From IMG/VR virus record IMGVR_UViG_3300045988_149625: 64,000 nt of DNA, one strand, 5' to 3'. Origin of the DNA: a virus. A program made the position numbers and the translations under genes. Position 1 is the stretch's first letter. Every line of letters begins with the position of its first letter. This document shows positions 9,756 to 49,873 of this stretch, piece by piece. Under the pieces are notes generated by a model that saw only the letters and a program-made list of their open reading frames with translations, was not told where the DNA came from and did not search any database.

Positions 9756-12742
9756 GTTGGGTAGGTATTGGTATTGCCCTTGTCAGTATGTTTGTAAGCC
9801 TTAGACAACAAAAGAAATTGTCTAAAAAAAAGGCTTCCTATACATACGGTGAGGGCGCACTGACTACCAACGTGAGCACCACAGACCCAGTACCTATTAT
9901 ATATGGTACTGTAAAAACTGCGGGAAACATGATTTATTCTAGATTAAGTAATGATAAAAAAGTGCTCTATAAATTAGTATCTGTTGCGGATGGTAAGATT
10001 AAGGGCATAAGGGATTTGCAATTTGATGATTTAGATGCAAATAGCAGTAAGTATGAGGGCGTTAGCTATAACTATTACTATGGTGATGGCGTACAAGAAA
10101 TAGATAGCCGTGTAATCGGAGATACACAAGAAGATAAAGCAATGCTAGTTGGCGGTTTAAAGTATTTGGCATACATAGCTTTACAGGCAAAGGCGAATGA
10201 AAATTTAAGCAGTAGTTTTAATGTTACTTGTTTAGTAGACGGTTCTATTGTAAAGATATATGAGAACGCAAACGATTTGACGCAGTATCGAGAGGAATGG
10301 ACGGATAATCCTGCATGGTGTGTTTTAGATTTTATGACACGTTATAATGGATGCGGAATGAGCCTTGATGAAATTGATGTTCAAAGTTTTATAGACGGAG
10401 CTAAATTCTTTAAAGAAAAGAATTATACATTAAATTTAGCTTTAGATGAACAAAGAAGCCGTTTAGAGTGGATACAGTATATGTTAAACTGTTGCCGTTC
10501 ACTGCTTATATATAGAGCAGGTAAATATAGTTTATTCGTGGAAAAGGCAGATGAGGTAGTTCAATCATATACTCCGAATGACATACACGATTTGAGTATA
10601 TGGTTCAGTCCTTTATCAGAAGTCCCAGATATTTATAGAATTACTTATATTGACCCTAAAAATGAGTGGGTAAAAGTAAATGCAGAAGCTTCTTTAAGCC
10701 CAGATAGCTATTTAAGAAAACAGCCAATGGTTGAAACTTTGGAGCTAATGGGTGTAACAACTTTTGACCAAGCAAGTAGATTAGCATGGTTCTACTTAAA
10801 TCAAGCACTGACTTGTCAAACCTACATTTCTTTTAAAACAGATAGACGCGCTTTAAATAGAACTGTTGGCGATGTAATAGAGGTTACAGACTATGTAACA
10901 GAGTTTCAAAAGAAAAAATTTAGAATAATAAAAATTGAAGATGAGCAAAATGAAAGTATAAAGCTTACATGTAGAGAGTACAACGAATCTATTTATAGTG
11001 AGCAACGTGGAGCGAGTGACCCTGTAATAAATGTTACAGAACTCACTGACCCGCAACAAACGCCGCCAGAAATAGTATATGTAGGAAATGAGCAAGACTA
11101 TTATATACTACCAGATAAAACGGTAGTAAGTAATATAATGTTAGATGTAATTTATACAGATTGGACTTATAATAAGAGTTTCAATGTTTCGTACCGTAAG
11201 AAGGATTCAGATAAGTGGCTTTTTGGTGGAACATTTGATGATGGTACTTACAGGGCTGTTATAGAGAATATGGAAATATACGAAACCTACATTTTCAGAT
11301 TTCAGAATATGAGTAAGTACGGCAAATTTTCAGCATATACTTATTCCCCAGAGATTTACATTACAGGTAAAAATGTAGCTCCTAATATGCCTTCTAATTT
11401 TCACGGTGAAGAGGTGGTAGGAGGTTTTAAACTTTATTGGGACGCTGGTGAAAAGGATGTAGATTATTATTTGTTATATTTAGGTTCTGTATCAGAAGAA
11501 GCTAAAATAGCACAAGTATATGGAACATCTTATTACTATCCTGCAGATGTTGGTGAATATACTTTTTATTTAGTAGCTGTTGATACAGCAGGTAATCGTT
11601 CCACTCCTGCAAGACTACTTTTAGAAATTTTATGCCCCTCAGACGTAAACGGCTTTGACTGTGTACAGAATGAACGCAACATAGAGTTTCATTGGAATTT
11701 AGTGGAAGGAGCTTCTTACTATGTACTTAAAGAGGGTGAGAACTGGGAATATGGTAATACCTTAGCAACAAGTTCTGGACATTTCTTTAGTTACCCATAT
11801 GCACAAGCAACAAGCACTACTTTTTGGATGAAAGCGTATACTGAATATGGCGTGCCTAGTGTAAACCCTGCATACTGTCAATTAAGTGTAGCATCTATAC
11901 CTAATAGGAACATGATTTTAGAATATGATGCAGTAGAAGATGGTTGGAGTGGTAAGAAATATAACATGCACGTAAATGCAGGTGGTATACAATTAGATGC
12001 AGGCAAGGTTTATGGGGACTATATATATCCTATGGAGTTAGACCAAGAGTATTGCGCAAGAAACTGGACAGAGAAAACTATCAAGCCAGTAAACGCGGAG
12101 TTAGAGCTTATGTGGAAGGATGCTCATTTTACATGGGCGAGTGCGAACGCTAAACGAAGAACTTGGTTTCCATTAGGCATAGATGATATATACAATTCAT
12201 GGACGGAAATTGCAATATATAATGAAGCAAGTAAAGAGGATATAGTCGAAAGAATGTCATTGAATGAAACACTTGTTTCAGATAGTGGTAAAAAGCCTGT
12301 AGGAAATGTTGGTACACCCACATATGGTGCAGGAAGATTTGAAAAAGGTCTTGTGTTAGATGGAAAGTGCCGTCCAAAATGGAAAAATTTGCCCATTGAT
12401 GATGCTTTCTCATTCAGTTTTAATCTTTACGTGCCTTTTGACAGTGTAAATAATTACTCGATTCTTACTTTAAGGAATGATTTAGGTGATTATTTATGGC
12501 TTCATTATAGAGAAGATGATGATATGTTTGTATGTACCTTTTCAGATGGTAGAGAGTATGAGTTAAAAGATTTTTCTGGAAAGGGCGATTATCTACATTT
12601 TATAATTTCACAAGGCGCAGGATATTTTACATTTGTTATATATGACGTAGGTTATGATTCCTATGTTATAAATAGAAAGAAAATTTCTACAATGAAGCGA
12701 TACACGCAGGTAGCTTTGTACGGTGATTTCAATAGGGAATAG
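9731..12742 (+). CDS. tail tip / host-specificity protein (gpI-like N-terminus fused to gpJ-like body)
   Basis: 1003 aa. Hydrophobic N-terminus followed by FN3-like repeats. Large central fibre gene after the M-L-K homologues. Confidence 0.55.
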   Translation: MSGAAAALGWVGIGIALVSMFVSLRQQKKLSKKKASYTYGEGALTTNVSTTDPVPIIYGTVKTAGNMIYSRLSNDKKVLYKLVSVADGKIKGIRDLQFDDLDANSSKYEGVSYNYYYGDGVQEIDSRVIGDTQEDKAMLVGGLKYLAYIALQAKANENLSSSFNVTCLVDGSIVKIYENANDLTQYREEWTDNPAWCVLDFMTRYNGCGMSLDEIDVQSFIDGAKFFKEKNYTLNLALDEQRSRLEWIQYMLNCCRSLLIYRAGKYSLFVEKADEVVQSYTPNDIHDLSIWFSPLSEVPDIYRITYIDPKNEWVKVNAEASLSPDSYLRKQPMVETLELMGVTTFDQASRLAWFYLNQALTCQTYISFKTDRRALNRTVGDVIEVTDYVTEFQKKKFRIIKIEDEQNESIKLTCREYNESIYSEQRGASDPVINVTELTDPQQTPPEIVYVGNEQDYYILPDKTVVSNIMLDVIYTDWTYNKSFNVSYRKKDSDKWLFGGTFDDGTYRAVIENMEIYETYIFRFQNMSKYGKFSAYTYSPEIYITGKNVAPNMPSNFHGEEVVGGFKLYWDAGEKDVDYYLLYLGSVSEEAKIAQVYGTSYYYPADVGEYTFYLVAVDTAGNRSTPARLLLEILCPSDVNGFDCVQNERNIEFHWNLVEGASYYVLKEGENWEYGNTLATSSGHFFSYPYAQATSTTFWMKAYTEYGVPSVNPAYCQLSVASIPNRNMILEYDAVEDGWSGKKYNMHVNAGGIQLDAGKVYGDYIYPMELDQEYCARNWTEKTIKPVNAELELMWKDAHFTWASANAKRRTWFPLGIDDIYNSWTEIAIYNEASKEDIVERMSLNETLVSDSGKKPVGNVGTPTYGAGRFEKGLVLDGKCRPKWKNLPIDDAFSFSFNLYVPFDSVNNYSILTLRNDLGDYLWLHYREDDDMFVCTFSDGREYELKDFSGKGDYLHFIISQGAGYFTFVIYDVGYDSYVINRKKISTMKRYTQVALYGDFNRE

Positions 12743-12753
12743 GAGAGGATTAA

Positions 12754-13200
12754 ATGAATACAGAAATGTCAGTTGTTGTTACAGGAATACTGTATGACGA
12801 GAATAATAATATTAAACAAAAGTTTGTAAAGCATAATTTGATTACAAGTGTAGGTTTTGATTTTGTAAGTAATTGCTTGGGTTCAACAACAAGACCAAAA
12901 CCTATTAGTCAAATTGGTGTAGGAACTAATAATACTGCCCCCGCTCTAGGGGATACAAACTTGAAAGCACTTAAACTTAAAAAGGCTTGTACCTACACTC
13001 ATACAGCAGGAACTACTTCCCTTGTATTCCAGACAGTTTTTGGTGCTGGGGAGGCAACGGGCGCTTTGGTGGAAGCGGGTATTTTTACAGGGGATGGTAT
13101 TTTATTTGATAGAGTTGTATACCCAGTAATTAATAAAGAAGATGTAGATACTTATGCAATGACTTTTGAAATTATTTTGAAGGAAGTATCAGTAGTATGA
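12754..13200 (+). CDS. hypothetical tail/fibre-region protein
   Basis: 148-aa ORF with an RBS (ggagaggattaaATG). Operon context. Confidence 0.3.
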   Translation: MNTEMSVVVTGILYDENNNIKQKFVKHNLITSVGFDFVSNCLGSTTRPKPISQIGVGTNNTAPALGDTNLKALKLKKACTYTHTAGTTSLVFQTVFGAGEATGALVEAGIFTGDGILFDRVVYPVINKEDVDTYAMTFEIILKEVSVV

Positions 13201-13937
13201 GTTTTACGATTAGAGAGGAAATTCGTGGCATAAAATTAAAAGAAGTCGCATTTCCTATCAGCCATTTTAAAGGGAAACGCTTAAAAGATTTTCGAGGAAC
13301 AGCTTACATTGCAGACTGGAAAGATTTACTAAGCTTCGACCTAGATGCTACAACTGTAAATGCTTATTCTAGAAAATTTAGTACAGCATTGGGGATACAA
13401 GAGGCACATAATAAGAAAACTATAAAGCATATTAAAGAGATATTTGGAATTGGTGTATTAAAAATAAATAATGCACAACAAGTATTAAGTGATTTACGCT
13501 TCTATGATAAGGTTCTAAATGAAACAAATTTTGATGAAACATTTACACCTTTTGGTTATAGTAAGTGGAAGAAAATGATTACAGGCGATTATATATATCA
13601 AAAAGCATTATGTAAATATGTAATGCAAGCTAGTCTTAATGCAGATAGACCTAATGCAAGGGCGTATACGCATAAAGTAGATGTGCCAGACCTTTTGGCT
13701 CAAGGTACGGTAGAATTAACAGTGAGTAATCAACCACGGGAGGTACACTTTCCTAAGGATAGGACTTTCCATATTGTACCAGAAATGAATATATCTATTA
13801 AGAGTTACAGTGGCACAGGTGCAACACCTTTAGTGTTGGCTTACAATGTTACTACAAAAGGTTTTATGGTGTCTATGAAAAACGAAGATGGCGGCTATGT
13901 TGAGGGGACAATAACTTATGCAGCCCGCGGATATTGA
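13197..13937 (+). CDS. hypothetical tail/fibre-region protein
   Basis: 246-aa ORF overlapping upstream by ATGA. Confidence 0.3.
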   Translation: MSFTIREEIRGIKLKEVAFPISHFKGKRLKDFRGTAYIADWKDLLSFDLDATTVNAYSRKFSTALGIQEAHNKKTIKHIKEIFGIGVLKINNAQQVLSDLRFYDKVLNETNFDETFTPFGYSKWKKMITGDYIYQKALCKYVMQASLNADRPNARAYTHKVDVPDLLAQGTVELTVSNQPREVHFPKDRTFHIVPEMNISIKSYSGTGATPLVLAYNVTTKGFMVSMKNEDGGYVEGTITYAARGY

Positions 13938-15357: not shown

Positions 15358-15836
15358 GTAGTTATCCTTATACACAAGTTATTGTAGATGCTAAAGGCAC
15401 AGATGGTGGAAATTCTAAGGCTTCTTTAAATGGAGCAGATATAATTCTTGCAACTGGGGGCAGTGGTGCAAAATATAAAAGAACTCGTACCCATGTTAAT
15501 TGGCACAGCTCTACTGAGTCCGAAGAAAAGCAGGTAGGTAGGGGTGGTACACCAAATGGCATAGATGGCACTTATTCAGTATCTGGCACAAAGGGGTATG
15601 ATATTCGTCCAGAGGTTACTAGAGGTTCTTATGGTAGCGGGGGAGGTTGTTCAAATACTAATACAGTTGTATATCCTGTATCTGGGGGCAGTGGTGGTAT
15701 TAATATTGTCACCATTCCTGTTAAGGAAGGGGATAGATTACAAATCACTGTTGGAAGCGCGGGTGCAGGTGGTGGAATTGGTTTAGCAGGAAATGCAGGA
15801 GCGGTAGCATTATGGTATTACAAATTGGGAAACTAA
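15354..15836 (+). CDS. glycine-rich tail fibre protein (second part; possibly same gene as 14554-15357 via frameshift)
   Basis: GGSGAKY...SYGSGGGCSN...VSGGSGGINIVTIPV...VGSAGAGGGIGLAGNAG. ATGA overlap with the preceding Gly-rich ORF. Confidence 0.4.
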   Translation: MSSYPYTQVIVDAKGTDGGNSKASLNGADIILATGGSGAKYKRTRTHVNWHSSTESEEKQVGRGGTPNGIDGTYSVSGTKGYDIRPEVTRGSYGSGGGCSNTNTVVYPVSGGSGGINIVTIPVKEGDRLQITVGSAGAGGGIGLAGNAGAVALWYYKLGN

Positions 15837-17035
15837 TAGATAATATATTAGTGGCAAAATTTATAACAAATAATACATTAAAAGAGTTTAAAGATTTAGT
15901 TGGGGAAGGAGATTATGTGGATATTACAGGGGTCGACATTCAAGAGGGTGACAAATTTGTTAATGGGGATGCTATTCATTGTGAGGGCGATTCATTATCC
16001 AAGGAAGGTGTAAAAGCACTTTATCTGATGCTAGGCAGTGCGTGTAATATGTCTTGCAGACATTGTACACAAACTCCTATTAAAGGTAATGTTGCTTTTC
16101 CTACTACTGAGTTAAGTAAGGATGTACTAGATTTTATAGTAAATTGGGATAAAAATGGCGGTGGAAGGTTATATTTTTGGGGCGGTGAACCTTTACTTTA
16201 TTGGAATACAATAAAGAAACTTATAGAAGAGTTTGAAAAAATGGGAATGAGAAATACTTCTTATCGCATTTTCACCAATGGTCTATTACTTTCAAATTCC
16301 ATTGTAGACTTTTGTAACAAACATAATATATGGGTAATTATGAGTTATGATGCACCTAACCCCTTAGCTGCAAGAAACGCCATGCCGTCAGAGAGAAATA
16401 TAGAAGCTTTCTTGTTGGCAGAAAAAAGAACAGTAAATGGTGTATACAATGCCTTAAACTGTGATATGGTAGCTGCTTTTAAATACTTGGAGTCAAAATT
16501 TCCTAATACTGAGGTAACTCTAGGGTTTATAAATGTATTATGGGATATACCAAAAGACTTATACGCTTTTGGAAAAGGCGAAGTAAGAAAGGCGGTAAAA
16601 GATTTATTTGAATATTATAAAGAAACAAGGGATTCAAATGTACACAGGTGGTTTGAAACTAAACTTAGAAGAGGGAATTACTTTTCCATTGAAGAATTTA
16701 TGCTTTCCCCATTTCCTCCCTGTGCACCTGGGCGTATCTCTTTATCTATAGATTTTGCAGGTAATATAATAAGATGCCACAATGACGATAAAGTGGTTGC
16801 AAATATTAAAGATGATTATTCAGATATATTAAAAGCACATGAAATGGAGTGGCTAAAGTTATTGCCAAGAAATTGTGCAGAATGTGAATGTCTACCTTTG
16901 TGCAGGTCAATTTGTCCAATAGCCTATAAGAAAGAAAACAAAGAAGAATTTGTACAATGTGATTATATAAGGGAGTTTTTTAGCGCGGTGCAGGAATGTG
17001 CCGATGATTTTTGGAGAATGGAAGGTGAGATGTAA
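15812..17035 (+). CDS. radical SAM enzyme with C-terminal SPASM domain (peptide/protein-modifying maturase-like)
   Basis: CNMSCRHC (CxxxCxxC) at about residue 78 and GGEPLL (SAM-binding). C-terminal Gx4C (GNIIRC) plus CAECECLPLCRSIC (Cx2Cx5Cx3C) plus a final Cys form a SPASM signature. An ~75-aa N-terminal extension precedes the cluster, as in RRE-containing sactisynthases. Confidence 0.7.
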   Translation: MVLQIGKLIDNILVAKFITNNTLKEFKDLVGEGDYVDITGVDIQEGDKFVNGDAIHCEGDSLSKEGVKALYLMLGSACNMSCRHCTQTPIKGNVAFPTTELSKDVLDFIVNWDKNGGGRLYFWGGEPLLYWNTIKKLIEEFEKMGMRNTSYRIFTNGLLLSNSIVDFCNKHNIWVIMSYDAPNPLAARNAMPSERNIEAFLLAEKRTVNGVYNALNCDMVAAFKYLESKFPNTEVTLGFINVLWDIPKDLYAFGKGEVRKAVKDLFEYYKETRDSNVHRWFETKLRRGNYFSIEEFMLSPFPPCAPGRISLSIDFAGNIIRCHNDDKVVANIKDDYSDILKAHEMEWLKLLPRNCAECECLPLCRSICPIAYKKENKEEFVQCDYIREFFSAVQECADDFWRMEGEM

Positions 17036-18970
17036 ATGGCAAGCTTTCATAACTGGACAGGTGATGAATTAATTGATACACAAGTCCCACAGTTTTTAAA
17101 TGAAGATAATGCAGCAACACAGGAGAAATTAGACACTAAATTTAATAAATCCTTAGATATAGCAGAAGCCTCAGACTTAAACAATTTTAAGGATGAGGGG
17201 TTCTACTGCTGTAATTCTAATTCTCGTGCTGAAACTATTTTAAATTGTCCTACTAATTATGCTTTCGGTTTAATGGTATGGGGTAAAGGCGAAATAGTCT
17301 ATCAAGAAGTGCGCGAATTTAACAGAGGCTCTAACCAAGATTACAATAACTGTTGGAGAAGAAGTTATTCTGGGGGCGGACAAGGTGTGTGGTCTAACTG
17401 GCAGAAAGTGGCTTATGCAGCTACTACTTTAGCAGAATACGGAATAACAGACGGTATGGGCAAGAACGCCACAAACAGTGTGGGTGTGACAGATATTATT
17501 AAAAGAAGTATTAATACGTCGTACTTGCGTTTAACAGGTGGCAATACATTTGATAAAAGTGCAACTCTTCAACTCTGCGGAGGTACTTATGCAACAAACG
17601 CAGGACAGTTTTTATTAAAAGCAGCAGATTCAGCACACTCAGCAACTCTTTCAGGTAATCCTTCTGGGCTACTTAAATGGAATGATAAAAATATAGTACG
17701 TTCAGTAAATAATTCTGTTGCAGATGAACATGGTAATGTAACTTTACTGTTCCCCGACTCAGATGTAACGCAGGAAGGCGCGGGGTACTGGAAGCCTAAT
17801 GAATCAGTACAAGAAGGGGATATACGTTATGTGTATGGTAGAGGAAACACAGGTGTTGTTTTAAAATGTGTGAAAGCAGGAATAACAGGAGCAGAATTAC
17901 CAGATTTAGAGGCTGCTTCAAATGCTGTGCAATTAGTAACAGAAACTACTACTGAGGTAAAACCTTTTGATATATTGGATTATGTATCACAAGTACCAGA
18001 ATATTACACACGCCCTAGTTTGTATACAGTTTCAAAAAAATCTATAACTATACCTAAGGGGTTACGTGTAAGAATTGGTGATAAAGGTTATGAGAGTGTT
18101 AGTACAACTACATTAAGCACTACATCTTTGGGAAGTTTGGCAGCAAAAGATGTTTATATATATGCTTGTGCTCCTATTACTTTATCTACTGAGCCAATAT
18201 TTGTACTTTCATTAAATAGTACAGTACCTAGTGGGTATACCGCAGAAAACAGTCGCAAGATTGGCGGTTTTCATTGCTTATGTGCAGATGTTGGTACAAT
18301 AAGTGGACATACTTTAAGTGGTTATGTAGCAGGTGACATACTTCCTGCTTCTGCATGGGATTTAATTCATCGTCCACGATGTTCCCCCGAAGCAATGGTG
18401 TATTGTGATACGGTGGACTTTTGGGTCGATATATATTTGGATAGTTGGGATGGTAACAAATTAGTATCTGTATACAAAGGTGTTACAGCAGACGGAACTT
18501 CCACTAAAAAGTTTCATGGTGAGCTTTTTGTAGATGAGCTTGCAAAATTGAATAAAAGACTACCTCCAAGAAGAGTATTTCAAGCAATAATGAAAGGCTC
18601 AAATGAACGCACCAATGTTAAAGGTTCGAAAGACGTAAATACTACTGGTGGTAATGTAGATACAGCAGGTCGAAGAATGATAAGTAATTATGGTTGTGAA
18701 GATGGCTGCGGTTTCTTGTGGCAATGGTCTGATGAACTAGGTTTTGCAGGTGGTAGTGCATGGACAGATTCAGTATATAATTCAAGTGTCGATTCTGAAA
18801 GAATTGGACAAACTTATGGAACTTTGTATAGAGCTGCGCTGGGCGGTTGCTGGGTTCACGGCGGTTCTTGTGGTTCGCGGTCGGTGTTTTGCAGCCATTC
18901 CTCGGCTCTTGTCAGTGCTTATTTTGGCGGTCGCGGCGCTTGCGAGCCGAAGGTCGCAAAGTTCTATTAG
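17036..18970 (+). CDS. DGR target protein: tail fibre/receptor-binding protein with C-terminal C-type-lectin-fold variable region
   Basis: 644 aa. Its C-terminus (…GGCWVHGGSCGSRSVFCSHSSALVSAYFGGRGACEPKVAKFY) is encoded by the variable repeat (VR), which matches the downstream template repeat (TR) except at TR adenines. ATGG overlap with the rSAM gene. Confidence 0.75.
   Translation: MASFHNWTGDELIDTQVPQFLNEDNAATQEKLDTKFNKSLDIAEASDLNNFKDEGFYCCNSNSRAETILNCPTNYAFGLMVWGKGEIVYQEVREFNRGSNQDYNNCWRRSYSGGGQGVWSNWQKVAYAATTLAEYGITDGMGKNATNSVGVTDIIKRSINTSYLRLTGGNTFDKSATLQLCGGTYATNAGQFLLKAADSAHSATLSGNPSGLLKWNDKNIVRSVNNSVADEHGNVTLLFPDSDVTQEGAGYWKPNESVQEGDIRYVYGRGNTGVVLKCVKAGITGAELPDLEAASNAVQLVTETTTEVKPFDILDYVSQVPEYYTRPSLYTVSKKSITIPKGLRVRIGDKGYESVSTTTLSTTSLGSLAAKDVYIYACAPITLSTEPIFVLSLNSTVPSGYTAENSRKIGGFHCLCADVGTISGHTLSGYVAGDILPASAWDLIHRPRCSPEAMVYCDTVDFWVDIYLDSWDGNKLVSVYKGVTADGTSTKKFHGELFVDELAKLNKRLPPRRVFQAIMKGSNERTNVKGSKDVNTTGGNVDTAGRRMISNYGCEDGCGFLWQWSDELGFAGGSAWTDSVYNSSVDSERIGQTYGTLYRAALGGCWVHGGSCGSRSVFCSHSSALVSAYFGGRGACEPKVAKFY
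18831..18945 (+). repeat. DGR variable repeat (VR), ~115 bp, with GC-rich IMH at its 3' end
   Basis: Aligns base-for-base with 19047-19161. About 24 mismatches, every one at a TR adenine. Ends in a shared ggcggtcgcggcgcttgcga; downstream gcgagccgaaggtcgca forms an imperfect GC hairpin. Confidence 0.8.
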
Positions 18971-19046
18971 AACTAGGTATACGGCTACATGAAGTTGTTA
19001 AGGAACACGAAGTAGTCTTGAATATACTGGGTTGTGGTTGTTAAAA

Positions 19047-19161
19047 GAGCTAAACTAGGCGGTAACTGGGATAACAGCAGTTCTTGTAGTTCGCAGTCAG
19101 TGAATTGCAACAATTCCTCAGCTAATGTCAATGCTAATTATGGCGGTCGCGGCGCTTGCGA
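19047..19161 (+). repeat. DGR template repeat (TR), A-rich (AAC/AAT codons)
   Basis: gagctaaactaggcggtaactgggataacagcagttcttgtagttcgcagtcagtgaattgcaacaattcctcagctaatgtcaatgctaattatggcggtcgcggcgcttgcga. Identical to the VR except where the TR has A. Confidence 0.8.
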
Positions 19162-19416
19162 TACGGAGAGAGCTATTCCTTCGGCTGAACCACAATCCAT
19201 TCTAGCAGAGAAATACTGTATAGAAAAACACACAACAGGAGTATAGAAGGGCTAGTAGTGTAAACGAACGTCATTCTATAAAACTCCGTATCTTTAAATA
19301 AAGGAGAAATAAACTTGAAAAGAATTGGGAATTTATGAACTAAAATTATAGATAAAGAAAATATTAAGGAGAGTATTTTAAGCGCTGCAAAACATAAGAA
19401 AAAGCGCCCTGCGGTA

Positions 19417-20709
19417 ATGAAGGTACTCAATAATATAGACGAATATGTAGAAAAGATTCACAAATTGTTAGTAAACAAGGAGTATAAAGTTTCGGAATAT
19501 TATATAAAAGCAATTTATGAGCCTAAGCTAAGGCTTATTTACATATTACCCTTTTATCCAGATAATATAATATTTCACTGCATAATGAGGGTATTAGAGC
19601 CTATATGGGACAGTAGGTTTATTTATGATACTTATTCATGCAGGAAGGGTAAGGGGCAACATAAAGGAATGTTAAAGAGCACTATATACGTAAAGAATTA
19701 CAAATACTGCTTAAAATGTGATATAAGTCAGTTTTACCCAAGCCTTAATCATAGAATACTAAAGGAAAGTTTCCGTTGGAAAATCAAAGATAAGGACGTA
19801 TTGGAGCTACTTGACTTAATAGTAGATAGTGTTTCTGTGCGGGAAAGGAATCTAGATTTTTTAAAGTGCTGCAAGGCAAGTGATAAACATATGATGGAAC
19901 AGAAGCTTCAAACATTAAAAGAAGAGTTCCCAGAAGGAGATTTCGGTGTGCCTATTGGTAATTATCCTTCACAATGGTTCGGAAACCTTTATATGAACCC
20001 TTTAGATAACCTTATTAAGTACTGTTTCCATGCAAAAGCATATGTAAGATACTGCGACGATTTTGTTGTTTACAGTAATGATAAAAAGTGGTTACATAGT
20101 GTAGCTGCGGAGATAGAGAACTTTTGTAAGGAAAGATTAAAATTAAAGATGAGTAAGTGTCGGGTATTTCCTACGAAGTGTGGAGTAGATTTCTTAGGGT
20201 ATAAAGCATTTCCCAGTGGTAAGATTCTTTTGCGTAAAAGGACAGCAAAAAGAGTCCATAAACAAATAAAAGCATTATGGAAAGAGCTATCTTATGGGAA
20301 CTATGAACAAATGCTTTCTAAAGTGGGAAGCAGAATGGGGTATTTAAGGTACGCTAAAAGTTATAATTTTAGATTACAAATAAAGATTAAAGAGTTGGAA
20401 AGGGAACTAAAAAGGAGGATTAGTATGGTAGGTTATCCAAAAAATTTAAGCACAAAAGAAGATTATGAGTACGTGAGAACACATTTCCCTAAAAGTGATT
20501 GGCAGAAAGACTTTGAAAGTCTTTTACCTCGCAAGGAATGGTTCTTCATTGAAGAAACTAAGGTTAATAAAAAAGAAGATGCTACTCATAAAACAGAACC
20601 CTCTGACGATGAAGGGGTATTCTATCGTTATGAATTGAGGGGGGTAAGTAAGGCAGCAGAAATTGGATATACGGTAGAAGAAGTAGAGAAGATTCTAAGG
20701 AGTGAATAA
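19417..20709 (+). CDS. DGR reverse transcriptase
   Basis: YCDDFVV (YxDD) and IGNYPSQWFGNLYMNP (DGR-type SQ motif). N-terminal YEPKLRLI is typical of DGR RTs. The conserved sequence continues in frame upstream to 19339 and the RBS-linked TTG at 19315, but an in-frame TGA lies at 19336-19338. Confidence 0.85.
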   Translation: MKVLNNIDEYVEKIHKLLVNKEYKVSEYYIKAIYEPKLRLIYILPFYPDNIIFHCIMRVLEPIWDSRFIYDTYSCRKGKGQHKGMLKSTIYVKNYKYCLKCDISQFYPSLNHRILKESFRWKIKDKDVLELLDLIVDSVSVRERNLDFLKCCKASDKHMMEQKLQTLKEEFPEGDFGVPIGNYPSQWFGNLYMNPLDNLIKYCFHAKAYVRYCDDFVVYSNDKKWLHSVAAEIENFCKERLKLKMSKCRVFPTKCGVDFLGYKAFPSGKILLRKRTAKRVHKQIKALWKELSYGNYEQMLSKVGSRMGYLRYAKSYNFRLQIKIKELERELKRRISMVGYPKNLSTKEDYEYVRTHFPKSDWQKDFESLLPRKEWFFIEETKVNKKEDATHKTEPSDDEGVFYRYELRGVSKAAEIGYTVEEVEKILRSE

Positions 20710-20711
20710 TA

Positions 20712-21719
20712 ATGGTAGTAGATAATACAGTACAGTGGTTACAGCTTAATTTAAAAGAAACAGGTTTGCCAGTAGGGTTTGAATACTTTACAATGAACCC
20801 AAACATACCCGCAGGAAGTTTGCCGCTACAAGGTGGTCTTTATAGCAGATTAGCATATTCAGACCTTTGGGAATGGGTACAGAAACAGACAGGATATTTA
20901 AAGGCTGAGTCAGAGTGGCAGGAACTTGCGGTCAGTAATAGTGGAAATGTGCCGTTTTACAGTAGCGGTGATGGTAGCACTACATTTAGAGTTCCTGCGC
21001 TGAAATGCTGGGTGCGGGGTGCTAGTAGCATTAGTGAGGTTGGTGGCTATTTGACTGCTGGATTGCCGAATATTACAGGAAGTATGGGACTAGCTGGTGC
21101 TCCTATATCAAATGCTAATAATAGAAACTTATATCCAAGCATTCTAAATGGTGTGTTTGAGATACAAGAAGGGCAAGAAGAACATTGGGCGGGTGAGCAT
21201 AAGGCAAATACTTTTTCAAAAGATGCGATTATATTTAACGCTTTTCTTTCTAATCCCATCTACGGTGCATCCGATACTGTACAACCACCATCCATCGTAG
21301 GCTTATGGTGTGTAAAGGCTTATGGCACTGTTACAAATGTTGGTAGCACGGATGTGGCTAATTTAGCACAAGGACTAACACAAACTGAAACACGTATAAG
21401 TGCATTGGAAACAAACAAGGTTGACAAGGCTGGTAATGCATGGGTGGTAGAATCTTACCGCAACGGCACTGAATGGTATAGAGTATGGTCAGATGGTTGG
21501 GTAGAACAAGGTGGATATTTTGAAAAGAAAAGAGACACGGCTTTAACTGTTACATTTTTGAAGCCTTACGTAGATAATGAATATACGTTTGCTTGTATGC
21601 TAGCTAGAGAAAATGGTTCTACACCAAAACTAACCACAAAGACTACAACAGGTTTTTCTATGTACACTGCCTCATGGGACTATGATATGTATTGGCGCAC
21701 AGAAGGTAAGGGGGCTTAA
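20712..21719 (+). CDS. tail fibre protein with phage tail-collar domain
   Basis: NIPAGSLPLQGGLYSRLAYSDLWEWV matches the tail-collar motif (iPaGw..cdG...Yp.Lw). Confidence 0.5.
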   Translation: MVVDNTVQWLQLNLKETGLPVGFEYFTMNPNIPAGSLPLQGGLYSRLAYSDLWEWVQKQTGYLKAESEWQELAVSNSGNVPFYSSGDGSTTFRVPALKCWVRGASSISEVGGYLTAGLPNITGSMGLAGAPISNANNRNLYPSILNGVFEIQEGQEEHWAGEHKANTFSKDAIIFNAFLSNPIYGASDTVQPPSIVGLWCVKAYGTVTNVGSTDVANLAQGLTQTETRISALETNKVDKAGNAWVVESYRNGTEWYRVWSDGWVEQGGYFEKKRDTALTVTFLKPYVDNEYTFACMLARENGSTPKLTTKTTTGFSMYTASWDYDMYWRTEGKGA

Positions 21720-45614: not shown

Positions 45615-45822
45615 ATCTAATTCGGAGAAGAAAAATTCTGTTCCGCAGATTAAAATTGCAGCAAGAAGTGTTGAAAAGACTAAAGGTGGATTTTTAAGTA
45701 TTAAGCAGGGAAGAACAGGCGACACAAATAACTTACAGACTAATCCATATTATAGATTTATGAATAGAACTTCTTGGAAAACTAAGAATAAAAAAGGCAT
45801 TACACCTTGGGGGCGTATTTAA
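45598..45822 (+). CDS. hypothetical small basic protein
   Basis: 74-aa ORF. Confidence 0.25.
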   Translation: MKLANKSNSEKKNSVPQIKIAARSVEKTKGGFLSIKQGRTGDTNNLQTNPYYRFMNRTSWKTKNKKGITPWGRI

Positions 45823-47717
45823 AAATGAAAGGTGATTTTACGCTTTTATTATCTGGTGTTGAGCCTAAGGAAAACTGGGAAGTAGCATCTTCTGTAACAA
45901 AGAATGTGCTACTTTCCTATAAGTATATTCGTAAACGTGGATTAGATGAAATTGTAAAGCGTTTAAAGTCCCATAGGGGAATGAAAGTTTTAATTGATAG
46001 TGGTGCTTATACATTCTTTAATGATAAAGAGTTTAATAATAAGACTATTGAATGGTGGGAAGATTATTTAGTAAAGTATATTAACTTTATACGTGAGTAC
46101 CGTGACTATATCTTTGCCTGCGTGGAACTAGATATTGATAGTATTGTTGGCGAGGATATTGTAGAAGGTTGGCGTGAAAAGTATTTCTACCCATTAGAAA
46201 GAGAAGGAATAAATGTTATTTATCTTTATCATTTAGATAAAGATTTATCGCATTTTGAAAAGCTTTGTAAGCAGCATCCTTATGTTGGATTTTCGTACAT
46301 GGAGATAAAGCATACTATTGAGGATATGGGGGAAAGAGAAAATCTCATTTCACAACTATTCCAAATAGCTAAAAGGTATAAATCTGCTATTCATGGTTTT
46401 GCAATTACAGGTAATAAGCTACTATTGAGTTATCCATTCTTTTCCGCAGATTCTACTACGTATTTAACAGGTGCGCAATTTGGTACAATTACCTACTTTG
46501 AAGCAGGTCAAATGAAGCATCTTGAAAAAACACAGTGGAAAACAGAATATATGGAAAAACTAAAGGCGTTGGGGTTAAAGGAGAAATTGCTTGAAATAGA
46601 ATCTCCTTATGAGCTTATAAGAGCAAATGCCATTAGCTATAAGAAATTTGAAGAATACGTTAAAAATGTTATGCGGCCACAAAAATATTGGGAAGCACGT
46701 TCAAACACTAAATACTCTATTCCAGATGCATCATGGTTTGAAGGGGATATGCAAGATTGGCAGGAACGCTTAGAACTAGCAGGAATTGATACAAACATTC
46801 CTCAAACAGCGGGTGAAACAATTTTACATGATGCTTATATTTTTCTAAATGAGCCTAAAGAAGCCAAGAATTATGAACTTGACGACCTTGTGGGTTTATG
46901 TGCAATGTTTGGTGCAACAGGTGCAAACTATAATACAAAAGATAAGTGTATAAAGTTTTTGCAGGAAGCTTTCAAAGAACATGTTGACGGTATGCGAAAC
47001 GAGTTGTCAAATTTGCAGAATCCAGAAGAGGGGCAGCGTATAGCACTTGAACGTGAGGACTATATTACAGAGAAAGAGTATTTAGAGGTTGAAATGAGTA
47101 GGGAAGAATGTGGAGAACTTCTACCTGCATTATTAACTTCTGGATATGATAAAGATGATGTTGAAAAATCTTTAATAGAACAAGGTATTAAACCAATCTA
47201 TGATAAAAATGGTAATATCTTAAAAGGTATCAAAAAGGTTAAGCGACAGAAAAAGCTTTCCACAAGGGCTTTGCCTAGACTTTCTTGTGATAGATGCGTA
47301 ATGGCAGCAAACTGTACAGAGTACCAAGCAGGATATATTTGTGCATACGATAAAATGTTCCGCAGATTTAACACCAGGGAACAAGAAGATGTTATACAGG
47401 GAATGACAGCTATTGCTGATTTAGCAATAGAACGTGCTCAAAAAGCCTTTATGCTTGAAACAGCTATGGGTGGGACACCTACAAAGGCTACTTCACAGGC
47501 AATGCAGGATGCTTTTGGATATTTAACTAAGTTAAAAGAATTGCAAGATGAAGTAAAAGGACGACCAGTTATGGTTTCACAAACAAAAATCAAGGGCGGC
47601 AGTATCGAACAAACTGTTGTTCATGGTGCTAATCCTCAATCTGGCGGCATTTTAGAGCGAATTTTTATGGAAGATACAGACGATGAAAAAACAGTAGAAG
47701 CGGAGGTAGTTAAATGA
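45807..47717 (+). CDS. DpdA/TGT-like (tRNA-guanine transglycosylase superfamily) protein, putative DNA 7-deazaguanine transglycosylase
   Basis: VLIDSGAYTF resembles TGT LTDSGGFQ. C-terminal Cys cluster (SCDRC...NC...C). Lies next to the QueC and QueE-like genes. 636 aa. Confidence 0.4.
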   Translation: MGAYLKMKGDFTLLLSGVEPKENWEVASSVTKNVLLSYKYIRKRGLDEIVKRLKSHRGMKVLIDSGAYTFFNDKEFNNKTIEWWEDYLVKYINFIREYRDYIFACVELDIDSIVGEDIVEGWREKYFYPLEREGINVIYLYHLDKDLSHFEKLCKQHPYVGFSYMEIKHTIEDMGERENLISQLFQIAKRYKSAIHGFAITGNKLLLSYPFFSADSTTYLTGAQFGTITYFEAGQMKHLEKTQWKTEYMEKLKALGLKEKLLEIESPYELIRANAISYKKFEEYVKNVMRPQKYWEARSNTKYSIPDASWFEGDMQDWQERLELAGIDTNIPQTAGETILHDAYIFLNEPKEAKNYELDDLVGLCAMFGATGANYNTKDKCIKFLQEAFKEHVDGMRNELSNLQNPEEGQRIALEREDYITEKEYLEVEMSREECGELLPALLTSGYDKDDVEKSLIEQGIKPIYDKNGNILKGIKKVKRQKKLSTRALPRLSCDRCVMAANCTEYQAGYICAYDKMFRRFNTREQEDVIQGMTAIADLAIERAQKAFMLETAMGGTPTKATSQAMQDAFGYLTKLKELQDEVKGRPVMVSQTKIKGGSIEQTVVHGANPQSGGILERIFMEDTDDEKTVEAEVVK

Positions 47718-49873
47718 GAAAATTAGCAAGTGTAGAAATTATAGATAAATTAGAGCCTATCCCAAATGCTGATAGAATTTTAAAAGCAACTGTAAAAGGT
47801 TGGGAATGTGTTGTAAGTAAGAGTGACAACTTTCAGCAAGGCGATAAAGTAGTGTATATTGAAGTAGATTCTGTTCTCCCTGCAAGACCAGAATTTGCCT
47901 TCCTTAAAGACAGAAAGTACCGCATTAAGACTATTAAGTTGCGTAAACAGATTTCACAAGGTTTGATTCTGCCTTTAAGTTACTTGCCAAACAAAGAATA
48001 CGCTGTTGGGGAAGATGTAACTAAAATATTGAATATTAAGAAATTTGACCCGCAGCTTGAAGCAGAGAATAAAATCATGGCAGTTGCTGCCCCAAAAGGA
48101 AGATTCACATTCTTATGGAAGCCTTTAATGCGTTTCCGTTGGTTTAGACGCTTATATGCAAAATTCCATGTACAGAATGAAAAGTTCCCTACTTACATTG
48201 CAAGCAAGACTGATGAAGAACGCTGGCAGAATATTACTGACAAGCTTGAACAATGGAGAGATACAAATGTCCCCCTGATTTGTACAGAGAAGGTCGACGG
48301 CTGCCATTCATACAGAAGTAGTGTAATTACAAATAAGGGGTTCTTGCCAATAGGTAAAATTGTAAATGAAAAACTTGATGTGGAAGTTCTTACTTATAAT
48401 GAAGAATCCAAATGTTGTGAGTTTAAACCTATTATAGATTATCATAAAATCTTATGTACAAAGCCTACATACCGCATTGGTGTAGGAAGTCGTGGTAAGG
48501 GAAATAAGCCTAAATATATTGAGTGTACCTCTAACCATGAATTTTTAACACAAGACGGCTGGAAGCAAGCGGATGAGCTTACTTTAGATGATACTCTAAT
48601 GCACTATTTTTCTGTTATTAACTATGATATTCAAAGTATTATCTTAGGCTGCTTACTAGGGGATAGCAGCATTAATGGCAATAGAAAAGGTACATCTTAC
48701 TTAACTGTACTGTTTGGGCACTCTGAAAAACAAGTAGAATATTTTAATTATAAGAAGCAGCTTTTTGGAAATCTTTTTATTGAACAAAAGGATACTTTAA
48801 GTGGATATGGCAGTGTAATTAAACATGGTATTTTACGTTCCAATGAGGGTGTTCGTAGACTTATTGAGGAGTATTGTTTGGTAGATGATAAATTTGCGGT
48901 AACACAAAAATATTGCGATGCTTTAACACCTATGTCATTGGCATTTTGGTATATGGACGACGGAAGCCTTTTAACAGGTACTTTACGACCAAAAGCAATT
49001 TTAAATACGCAAGCATATGATTTAAATACTATCAAAATGCTTGTAGAAACCTTACGTAACCGCTTTGGTTTAGAGGCATTTATTGGAGATAAAGAAGTTT
49101 ATAAAGGATACGTTATTTATTTCTCTGTGGAATCTACCCTTAAATTTGCACAATTAATTGCCCCCTATGTATGCGAAAGTATGAGATATAAATTACCAGA
49201 ACAGTATAGAAGTTATGGATGTGCTTTAAATAGTGTAAATACAGAAGTGCAAGATATTTTACCCACAAAAATTCTCTCCATTGAAGAGTTTGAAGCAGGT
49301 CATTTTGGCAAGCATATGTATGATTTAACTATTCAAGATAATCATAATTATTTTGTACATAGTATTTTAACTCATAATTGTTCCTCAACCTTCTTTTTAG
49401 ACGGCGGCACTTTTGGGGTTTGCAGTAGAAATATTTGGCTACGTAAGGAAGATAATTCGCCCTATTGGGAAATTGCAAGACGCTTTCAGATTGAGGAAGC
49501 TTTAAAGGAGATTCAAAAGTGCTTTGGTTTTAGAAAAATTGTTTTACAAGGTGAGATTATTGGGCAAAATATCCAAGCTAATAAATATAAGATTAGCGGG
49601 TATGATTTTTATGCCTATAATTTAATCCTTGACGGCATTAAAGTTTCACAAGTAAAAATGGAAGAGCTTCTTAAAGAATTTCGCATTAAAACAGTGCCTG
49701 TAGTTTATAAGCATATCAATGTGCCAAGTGACTTACAGACCTTAAACAATCTTGCGAGTGGTAAAAGTGTATTACTTGATACACAAGAGCGTGAAGGTAT
49801 CGTTTGCAGAAATTATGAGCAGGGGATTTCTTTTAAAGCGATTTCCCCAACTTTCTTGCTAAAAGAAGAATAA
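47714..49873 (+). CDS. RNA ligase (N-terminal tRNA-binding-like OB domain plus nucleotidyltransferase domain, Rnl5/DraRnl-like) interrupted by an intein
   Basis: N-terminus SVEII...PNADRIL...VGDKVVYIEVDSVLP is tRNA-binding-domain-like. Motif I TEKVDG is followed immediately by the intein Cys. C-extein has EGIVCRN (motif IV). Confidence 0.6.
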   Translation: MRKLASVEIIDKLEPIPNADRILKATVKGWECVVSKSDNFQQGDKVVYIEVDSVLPARPEFAFLKDRKYRIKTIKLRKQISQGLILPLSYLPNKEYAVGEDVTKILNIKKFDPQLEAENKIMAVAAPKGRFTFLWKPLMRFRWFRRLYAKFHVQNEKFPTYIASKTDEERWQNITDKLEQWRDTNVPLICTEKVDGCHSYRSSVITNKGFLPIGKIVNEKLDVEVLTYNEESKCCEFKPIIDYHKILCTKPTYRIGVGSRGKGNKPKYIECTSNHEFLTQDGWKQADELTLDDTLMHYFSVINYDIQSIILGCLLGDSSINGNRKGTSYLTVLFGHSEKQVEYFNYKKQLFGNLFIEQKDTLSGYGSVIKHGILRSNEGVRRLIEEYCLVDDKFAVTQKYCDALTPMSLAFWYMDDGSLLTGTLRPKAILNTQAYDLNTIKMLVETLRNRFGLEAFIGDKEVYKGYVIYFSVESTLKFAQLIAPYVCESMRYKLPEQYRSYGCALNSVNTEVQDILPTKILSIEEFEAGHFGKHMYDLTIQDNHNYFVHSILTHNCSSTFFLDGGTFGVCSRNIWLRKEDNSPYWEIARRFQIEEALKEIQKCFGFRKIVLQGEIIGQNIQANKYKISGYDFYAYNLILDGIKVSQVKMEELLKEFRIKTVPVVYKHINVPSDLQTLNNLASGKSVLLDTQEREGIVCRNYEQGISFKAISPTFLLKEE
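48302..49378 (+). mobile_element. intein (359 aa) with LAGLIDADG homing-endonuclease domain, inserted after ligase motif I (KVDG|C...HN|C)
   Basis: Starts at Cys197 right after KVDG and ends ...SILTHN before the +1 Cys. LAGLIDADG-type blocks ILGCLLGDSSI and LAFWYMDDGSL. In-frame, length is a multiple of 3. Confidence 0.7.

Follow-up and report, generated by a model that had tools for sequence, protein, structure and literature searches.

An in-frame UGA fixed at the eighth codon of the reverse transcriptase gene in a hypermutating phage retroelement

The best solved relative of the reverse transcriptase (RT) described here is bRT (PDB 8ub7), from the diversity-generating retroelement (DGR) of Bordetella phage BPP-1. 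The N-terminal extension (NTE) of bRT contacts Avd, the template:primer duplex and a stem-loop of the Sp RNA segment, which is 140 nucleotides long, and its residue K29 was seen by cryo-EM to touch the 5′ phosphate of the initiating template nucleotide (bioRxiv 10.1101/2023.10.23.563531). DGR RTs interrupted by a stop codon have also been described: that of Ruminococcus gnavus ATCC 29149, with a nonsense/frameshift lesion, was classed as inactivated (PMC3521204), and surveys routinely take a premature RT stop as a sign of inactivity and filter such elements out (PMC5758913, PMC3521204). Here we analyzed a stretch of 64,000 nucleotides of phage DNA (IMG/VR record IMGVR_UViG_3300045988_149625; this whole stretch is called the window), whose tail module houses a classical DGR according to the gene map and to Pfam/PHROG annotation. 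The RT gene of this DGR carries an in-frame TGA as its eighth codon (Table 1).

In phage Q-beta, UGA is occasionally decoded by tRNA-Trp, and a minor fraction of the ribosomes makes the longer A1 protein; the leaky stop there ends a functional coat protein, to which readthrough appends a domain. In stop-recoded phages and hosts, TGA is read as Trp (genetic code 4).

An old stop codon fixed in a phage clade

Direct reading of the sequence confirmed the layout proposed in the initial annotation for the start of the gene: a TTG, six further sense codons, the TGA, and 26 open codons leading to an ATG (Met35) that lacks a Shine-Dalgarno (SD) sequence, no SD-like motif being found before it (CATAAGAAAAAGCGCCCTGCGGTAATG). 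The SD that had been placed at 19299-19305 is present, one base further on, at 19300-19306, and strong SDs (AAGGAGG-type) are widespread among the genes of the phage. Translation from the TTG gives LKRIGNL*TKIIDKENIKESILSAAKHKKKRPAVMKVL..., and the frame stays open after the TGA up to the TAA ending at 20709. Elsewhere in the RT, Trp is encoded seven times, always by TGG, and TGA thus stands at 1 of 8 Trp positions.

To place the stop, 28 related contigs from 28 different samples or assemblies, mostly from the human gut and belonging to genomes of ~100 kb, were taken from ENA, Logan and IMG/VR. The TGA, the TTG and the SD (as AAAGGAG, AAGGGAG or AGGGGAG) are present in all 28. The bases near the TGA vary, so that 8 different leader sequences, and 11 haplotypes of leader plus RT, can be told apart, and the clade falls into two TGA-bearing subclades whose RT proteins are ~84% identical (dS ~0.45-0.5). 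A sequencing or assembly error in the window, plausible beforehand and one of the three explanations originally offered, is refuted by the recurrence of the TGA in contigs that come from several projects and assemblers and do not agree in the bases around it, and we regard it as practically excluded. The stop is real, old and fixed in the clade. Automatic annotation passes over it: of the 52 proteins in the 90%-identity cluster, the 15 that are listed all measure 430 amino acids, having been called from Met35.

By homology, the codons on either side of the stop belong to the RT. The RT falls in the DGR clade, with 1,951 homologues found, many of them beside Mtd-like genes, and the N-terminus reads MKR[HYI]GNL[WYF].KI..EN[LI] in ~100 of the 120 best homologues. 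When intact homologues were compared with the window by tblastn, the alignment ran from 19315 straight across the TGA, and a family profile of 20 sequences aligned to bRT from its residue 3 onward (E=5e-68). The earlier proposal that these codons match the conserved N-termini of DGR RTs is therefore borne out, and the bRT sequence quoted for it agrees with PDB 8ub7. MKR..L is invariant throughout the family alignment, which implies functional weight. Position 8 is W, F or Y in the ~140 homologues surveyed, with no other lineage carrying a stop there; in the 63 genome-borne homologues the counts are 50 W, 10 F, 2 Y and one other residue. Comparison with related phages, which the initial annotation had called for, did turn up a sense codon at this position in the sister clade. 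Because its member L005, the nearest stop-free relative (59% identical), reads TTG AAG CGT TAC GGA AAT CTT TGG, the stop is most simply explained by a single ancestral TGG-to-TGA transition in a gene whose TTG start would itself be ancestral.

The family survey comprised 80 viral and 80 genomic loci. An ATG start prevails (72/77 viral and 51/63 genomic loci), and the idea that weak starts are a habit of the whole family was rejected on these counts; they occur in few lineages, with TTG in the TGA clade, its sister clade and a few others. Four further loci, L031 (~1300-1330), L032 (~330-360), L034 and L035, combine an intact MKR.GNLW-type N-terminus with an ATA initiator after a good SD (AGGGAGGG-N10-ATA), and gene callers therefore shorten these RTs (P0014, with 251 cluster members, and P0015).

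Premature stops also occur sporadically in other RTs of the family, each time in single contigs: at codon 30 in L054 (TAG) and L057 (TGA), codon 63 in L040 (TGA), codon 147 in L035, codon 225 in L086/L121 and codon 312 in L061. Two of them likewise replace a conserved Trp (KSWQ). A clustering of premature stops at the N-terminus of DGR RTs was considered and rejected, given those at codons 147, 225 and 312. These sporadic cases fit the published view that inactivation is frequent among DGR RTs (PMC5758913, PMC3521204).

Repeat variation and selection around the stop

The template repeat (TR) and variable repeat (VR) of the window differ at 26 positions, 25 of which are TR adenines, and the lone mismatch at another base sits at the repeat edge. 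Variation among the relatives follows the same rule. Six loci that agree at every nucleotide of RT and TR carry five different VRs, and the variable VR columns fall at TR adenines in 16/16 cases in this group and in 9/10 and 15/16 in two others. Between L027 and L029, 16 of 118 VR sites differ against none of ~2,870 flanking sites; between L008 and L012, the figures are 5 of 118 and none of ~3,700. At the level of sequence comparison, these data show a DGR that is currently active, with ongoing mutagenic retrohoming. The TGA predates these VR changes, because far more divergent genomes share it.

The TR itself also differs between near-identical genomes (L007/L009/L011/L013/L002 and L020/L021 compared with L008 and L019), solely at adenines (7/7 and 11/11 differences), and at 7/7 and 9/11 of these sites the new TR base is the VR base of the same genome. 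This suggests VR-to-TR conversion or homing of cDNA into the TR; alternatively, the two repeats may have been joined in a chimeric assembly.

Selection was assessed by tree-based parsimony on the 11 haplotypes, counting the RT body and the leader (the 33 sense codons before Met35) separately. The body showed 237 synonymous and 172 non-synonymous changes (omega ~0.16), and the leader 9 and 10, with no nonsense change and no indel (omega ~0.27). The two do not differ (Fisher P=0.48), and the leader departs from neutrality with P=0.006 at equal rates and 0.009-0.09 when transition bias is allowed. Codons 2-7, before the stop, had no non-synonymous change where 6.8-14 would be expected under neutrality (P<=1e-3). 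Beyond it, codons 9-34 had 8 synonymous and 10 non-synonymous changes against 30-62 non-synonymous ones expected (P<=3e-5), again with no nonsense change or indel. As judged from these substitution counts, the codons flanking the stop on both sides and the RT body are shown to be under purifying selection. Such two-sided constraint is what a continuously translated protein predicts, and not a throw-away upstream open reading frame followed by an internal start.

A pseudogene under relaxed selection was rejected in view of the body omega and of the presence of an extra stop in one haplotype only (L002, codon 382). The initial annotation had also raised a nonsense mutation that leaves the DGR inactive or attenuated; the VR changes at TR adenines and the purifying selection speak against inactivity, while attenuation remains likely.

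Proposed readthrough and its alternatives

An alternative genetic code is excluded as the reading of the TGA. TGA terminates ~19 tightly packed genes of the window, ATGA stop/start overlaps included; when open reading frames were compared for four sets of stop codons, reading TGA as sense lengthened them little, and TGA was found to split no other conserved gene of the window. Genome-wide reassignment (code 4 or 25) was accordingly rejected. ARAGORN found no tRNA gene in the 64-kb window, in 4.6 kb to its right or in ~11 kb to its left, these flanks being taken from relatives (L115, L116, L117); no suppressor tRNA(UCA) was found in the ~80 of ~100 kb scanned.

Two other ways around the stop were rejected. 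Selenocysteine insertion would need a signal of which no trace was seen, neither a SECIS-like (selenocysteine insertion sequence) structure nor an Rfam match, and the homologues carry W, F or Y at the site. A frameshift bypass is unneeded because the TTG and the RT lie in the same frame, and the ATG at 19335 in the -1 frame opens just ATG-AAC-TAA.

Because the target gene still hypermutates despite the stop, the stop is most likely read through. We favour, with about even confidence, low-level UGA readthrough as the source of the full-length RT. RT translation would start at the TTG behind the sole good SD, and most ribosomes would stop after seven codons. A small fraction would decode the UGA by a tRNA, most likely a near-cognate host tRNA-Trp that restores the ancestral Trp, and would yield the 464-amino-acid RT with an intact NTE. 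The TGA allele became fixed in a widespread clade of ~100-kb human-gut phages, presumably with RT expression lowered by the stop. With the TTG start in addition, very little RT is expected. As the VR data show, this little suffices, and a small amount of enzyme would therefore support adenine-specific mutagenic retrohoming of the tail-protein VR. In bacteria, basal stop-codon readthrough lies between 1e-3 and 1e-2 and reaches up to ~10% under stress (PMC10057733), and in E. coli the endogenous tRNA-Trp(CCA) causes background readthrough of UGA (PMC13092985). Since neither a stimulatory context nor an RNA structure was found, basal leakiness would be at work, and not an elaborated recoding signal.

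What an internal start would cost can be gauged from structure. On the AlphaFold model of a 59%-identical relative (pLDDT 90), a product begun at Met35 would be without two of the four NTE helices and without the loop that bears K28, the residue that aligns to bRT K29 in the profile alignment with PDB 8ub7. The initial annotation had proposed that low-level readthrough or recoding could throttle the RT and hence mutagenesis. Its readthrough part is favoured by the two-sided constraint and by the loss of important NTE residues from a Met35 product; readthrough itself is inferred from these data, and the stop may be an adaptive throttle or simply tolerated.

Several observations weigh against readthrough. 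Met35 is confined to the TGA clade (the sister clade has ATT, Ile), as would be expected of a compensatory internal start. The ratio of synonymous to non-synonymous changes in the leader is, taken alone, just suggestive once transition bias is allowed, the rate-based test cannot fully separate amino-acid from nucleotide-level constraint, and synonymous variation is lower in the leader than in the body (pS 0.47 against 1.0). No stimulatory signal accompanies the stop: RNA folding there is not significant (z=-0.78), no readthrough-stimulating Rfam element was found near it, and the A at the +4 base is undistinctive, as it also follows 5 of 19 genuine TGA stops of the phage. The tRNA scan covers ~80 of ~100 kb. 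Finally, the RT family is found across many phyla and therefore allows no host call, on which any estimate of UGA leakiness would depend, and the phage has no DNA match in INPHARED and no close relative among GTDB genomes.

The most serious of the competing explanations, which we nonetheless consider unlikely, is that the active RT is truncated and begins at Met35, either independently or by reinitiation 78 nucleotides past the UGA after a seven-codon upstream open reading frame, the leader having ceased to belong to the protein. The co-occurrence of Met35 with the TGA would fit, as would its choice by gene callers and the A-rich, unstructured sequence before the ATG, and the SD and TTG might then be retained merely for ribosome loading. 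However, the ATG lacks the SD on which genes of this phage depend, reinitiation across 78 nucleotides is unusually long for bacteria, purifying selection acts on codons 2-7 and 9-34 alike and no indel or stop has entered them in 11 haplotypes, and the product would be deprived of the greater part of the NTE and, with it, of the counterpart of bRT K29. Reinitiation closer to the stop, at the in-frame ATT at 19345 or ATA at 19348, would spare all but ~10 residues of the RT and account for the constraint on codons 12-34, and an ATA initiator is tolerated in related RTs. It leaves unexplained why codons 2-7 show no amino-acid change; MKR..L is invariant in the family, and the ATT at 19345 is GTT in L001 and L019-L021, which makes this scenario decidedly improbable.

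The UGA could also be decoded efficiently by a specialised tRNA, whether a phage tRNA(UCA) in the remaining ~20 kb, a host suppressor or a tRNA-Trp with a 4-bp anticodon stem, in which case the RT level would be substantial, perhaps at one infection stage only. Recoded phages are known, and the tRNA scan leaves ~20% of the genome, plus the host, as a source. Such tRNAs also occur in standard-code bacteria (PMC13092985). Against this, no tRNA gene lies in the window or in the flanks scanned, TGA ends ~19 well-packed genes without splitting another conserved one, and the other Trp codons of the RT are TGG; dedicated suppression thus appears improbable. That the RT is dead, with VR diversity supplied in trans by another RT or by recombination with earlier variants, has in its favour that DGR RTs often carry premature stops, which are normally taken as inactivation (PMC5758913, PMC3521204), with sporadic cases in this family. 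It is very hard to reconcile with a body omega of ~0.16 sustained over a dS of ~0.5, with the lack of a second RT in the window (searched by tblastn with intact homologues) and with VR changes found at TR-adenine columns only, between flanks that agree over thousands of bases. Recombination is disfavoured as the source of VR diversity precisely because the changes sit at those columns between identical flanks, and we consider a dead RT highly improbable.

Beyond readthrough as such, the leak at the UGA could be programmed and maintained by selection, and could set, jointly with the weak TTG start, how much RT is made and hence the hypermutation rate; this is an idea that we advance tentatively and consider doubtful. 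The TGA has been kept over about one synonymous change per site although a single A-to-G change would restore TGG, which is compatible with selection for very low RT expression, as are the ATA and TTG initiators of sister lineages. If the stop were programmed, a rise in readthrough under acid, metabolic or starvation stress could tie tail-fibre diversification to host physiology.

Surroundings of the retroelement and comparison with known systems

Table 1 Coordinates of the DGR, the start region of its RT gene and neighbouring tail-module genes in the window
Feature	Position	Strand	Remarks
Tape-measure gene			Tail module
J-like fibre gene			Tail module
Radical-SAM gene	15812-17035		Tail module
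DGR target gene	17036-18970	+	Mtd-like tail protein, 644 amino acids, VR at C-terminus
VR	18830-18952	+	123-nucleotide direct repeat of TR
TR	19046-19168	+	123 nucleotides, 33 adenines
TR-to-RT spacer	19169-19299	+	Probably the Sp RNA segment of the DGR; strongly conserved among relatives
SD (AAAGGAG)	19300-19306	+	8-nucleotide spacer to TTG; sole good SD here
Full RT frame	19315-20709	+	464 codons including TGA, ends TAA; Pfam RVT_1 E=1e-14
TTG initiation codon	19315-19317	+	Start of full-length RT; invariant in clade
Codons 2-7 (KRIGNL; AAA AGA ATT GGG AAT TTA)	19318-19335	+	Extreme N-terminus conserved in DGR RTs
In-frame TGA, codon 8	19336-19338	+	Stands where homologues conserve an aromatic residue, mostly Trp
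Codons 9-34	19339-19416	+	26 open codons; rest of NTE, severed by TGA; includes K28
ATG (Met35)	19417-19419	+	Start chosen by gene callers; no SD; clade-specific
Tail-fibre gene	20712-21719		Tail module

The target protein matches Pfam PF21916 (Mtd_2nd) at residues 329-442 (E=7e-22) and a PHROG tail protein (E=1e-57), and its VR ends 18 nucleotides before the stop codon of the gene. The radical-SAM gene abuts the target gene upstream and holds the same position in all relatives examined. No accessory gene of the Avd/HRDC kind was found: there is no room for an open reading frame between VR and TR (18953-19045), and none of the neighbouring open reading frames scanned had an Avd-like Pfam match. 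The 70-amino-acid open reading frame listed at 19034-19246 is the TR read as protein. In several relatives (P0004-P0006, P0019, P0047, P0053, P0058), gene callers join this TR-encoded peptide to the RT, and the fusions appear as artificially long "RT" proteins starting ...NWDN..SCSS...N.N...

The distance from the end of the TR to the TTG is 146 nucleotides, and the spacer is comparable to the BPP-1 Sp in length and position. An Rfam match to the RT-14 RNA at 19179-19280 covers the full model and stays below threshold (it scores 24 bits, E=0.81, where the gathering cutoff is 48); an Rfam scan of the spacers of 11 related loci gave no match. At its other end, the RT has a C-terminal extension of ~100-120 amino acids, which is found in only a subset of the homologues (427-553 amino acids against the usual ~340).

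Directly after the RT comes the tail-fibre gene, which has been exchanged among phages that are nearly identical elsewhere (L001, L007, L008, L019, L022, L027); its versions measure 288, 325-340, 386 or 428 amino acids, and a Collar domain is present in some. Next to the DGR, this gene seems to form a second host-range cassette, one that works by recombination. Farther along the window, a queuine tRNA-ribosyltransferase-like gene (45792-47717, PHROG 887) is followed by an RNA ligase gene (47714-49873), the middle part of whose product matches a LAGLIDADG homing endonuclease and may be an intein or an inserted endonuclease. In L115, 2.4 kb without a called gene or tRNA lie at 11400-13767, ~1.4-3.8 kb past the right end of the window.

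The stop-bearing RT thus belongs to a hypermutating DGR in a phage clade recovered from 28 samples, mostly human-gut metagenomes. Because this element hypermutates with its stop in place, filtering on premature stops can remove live elements; in addition, automatic annotation mis-starts the RT at Met35 in the examined members of the 52-member cluster. How DGRs control RT level and mutation rate is poorly understood, and the clade offers a simple natural handle of one codon. If readthrough is true, the RT would be a rare enzyme of a bacterial virus whose sole functional product depends on reading through a stop.

Like the BPP-1 DGR, the present element combines an RT of the same family with adenine-specific TR/VR mutagenesis, an Mtd-like target with a C-terminal VR and a spacer between TR and RT (~146 nucleotides, 140 in the Sp of BPP-1). 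It differs from BPP-1 by the UGA at codon 8 and the TTG start, by the absence of avd between VR and TR or beside the RT, by an RT of 464 amino acids instead of the 328 of bRT (with ~100-120 more at the C-terminus), and by the radical-SAM gene directly upstream of the target.

With the DGR RTs described as inactivated, it shares a premature RT stop and an otherwise intact TR/VR pair (PMC3521204, PMC5758913). However, those are single genomes, read as recent inactivation, whereas the present stop has reached fixation in a diverged clade and is accompanied by ongoing VR hypermutation and by purifying selection on both of its sides. As in systems where TGA encodes Trp (PMC13092985), the in-frame TGA stands where relatives carry Trp; unlike in those systems, TGA is here the ordinary stop of ~19 genes, and no suppressor tRNA was found in ~80 kb. 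In contrast to Q-beta, where the leaky stop follows a functional protein, the stop lies here at codon 8, and the terminated product would be a peptide of seven residues, so that, as read from the gene, only the readthrough product could be the enzyme.

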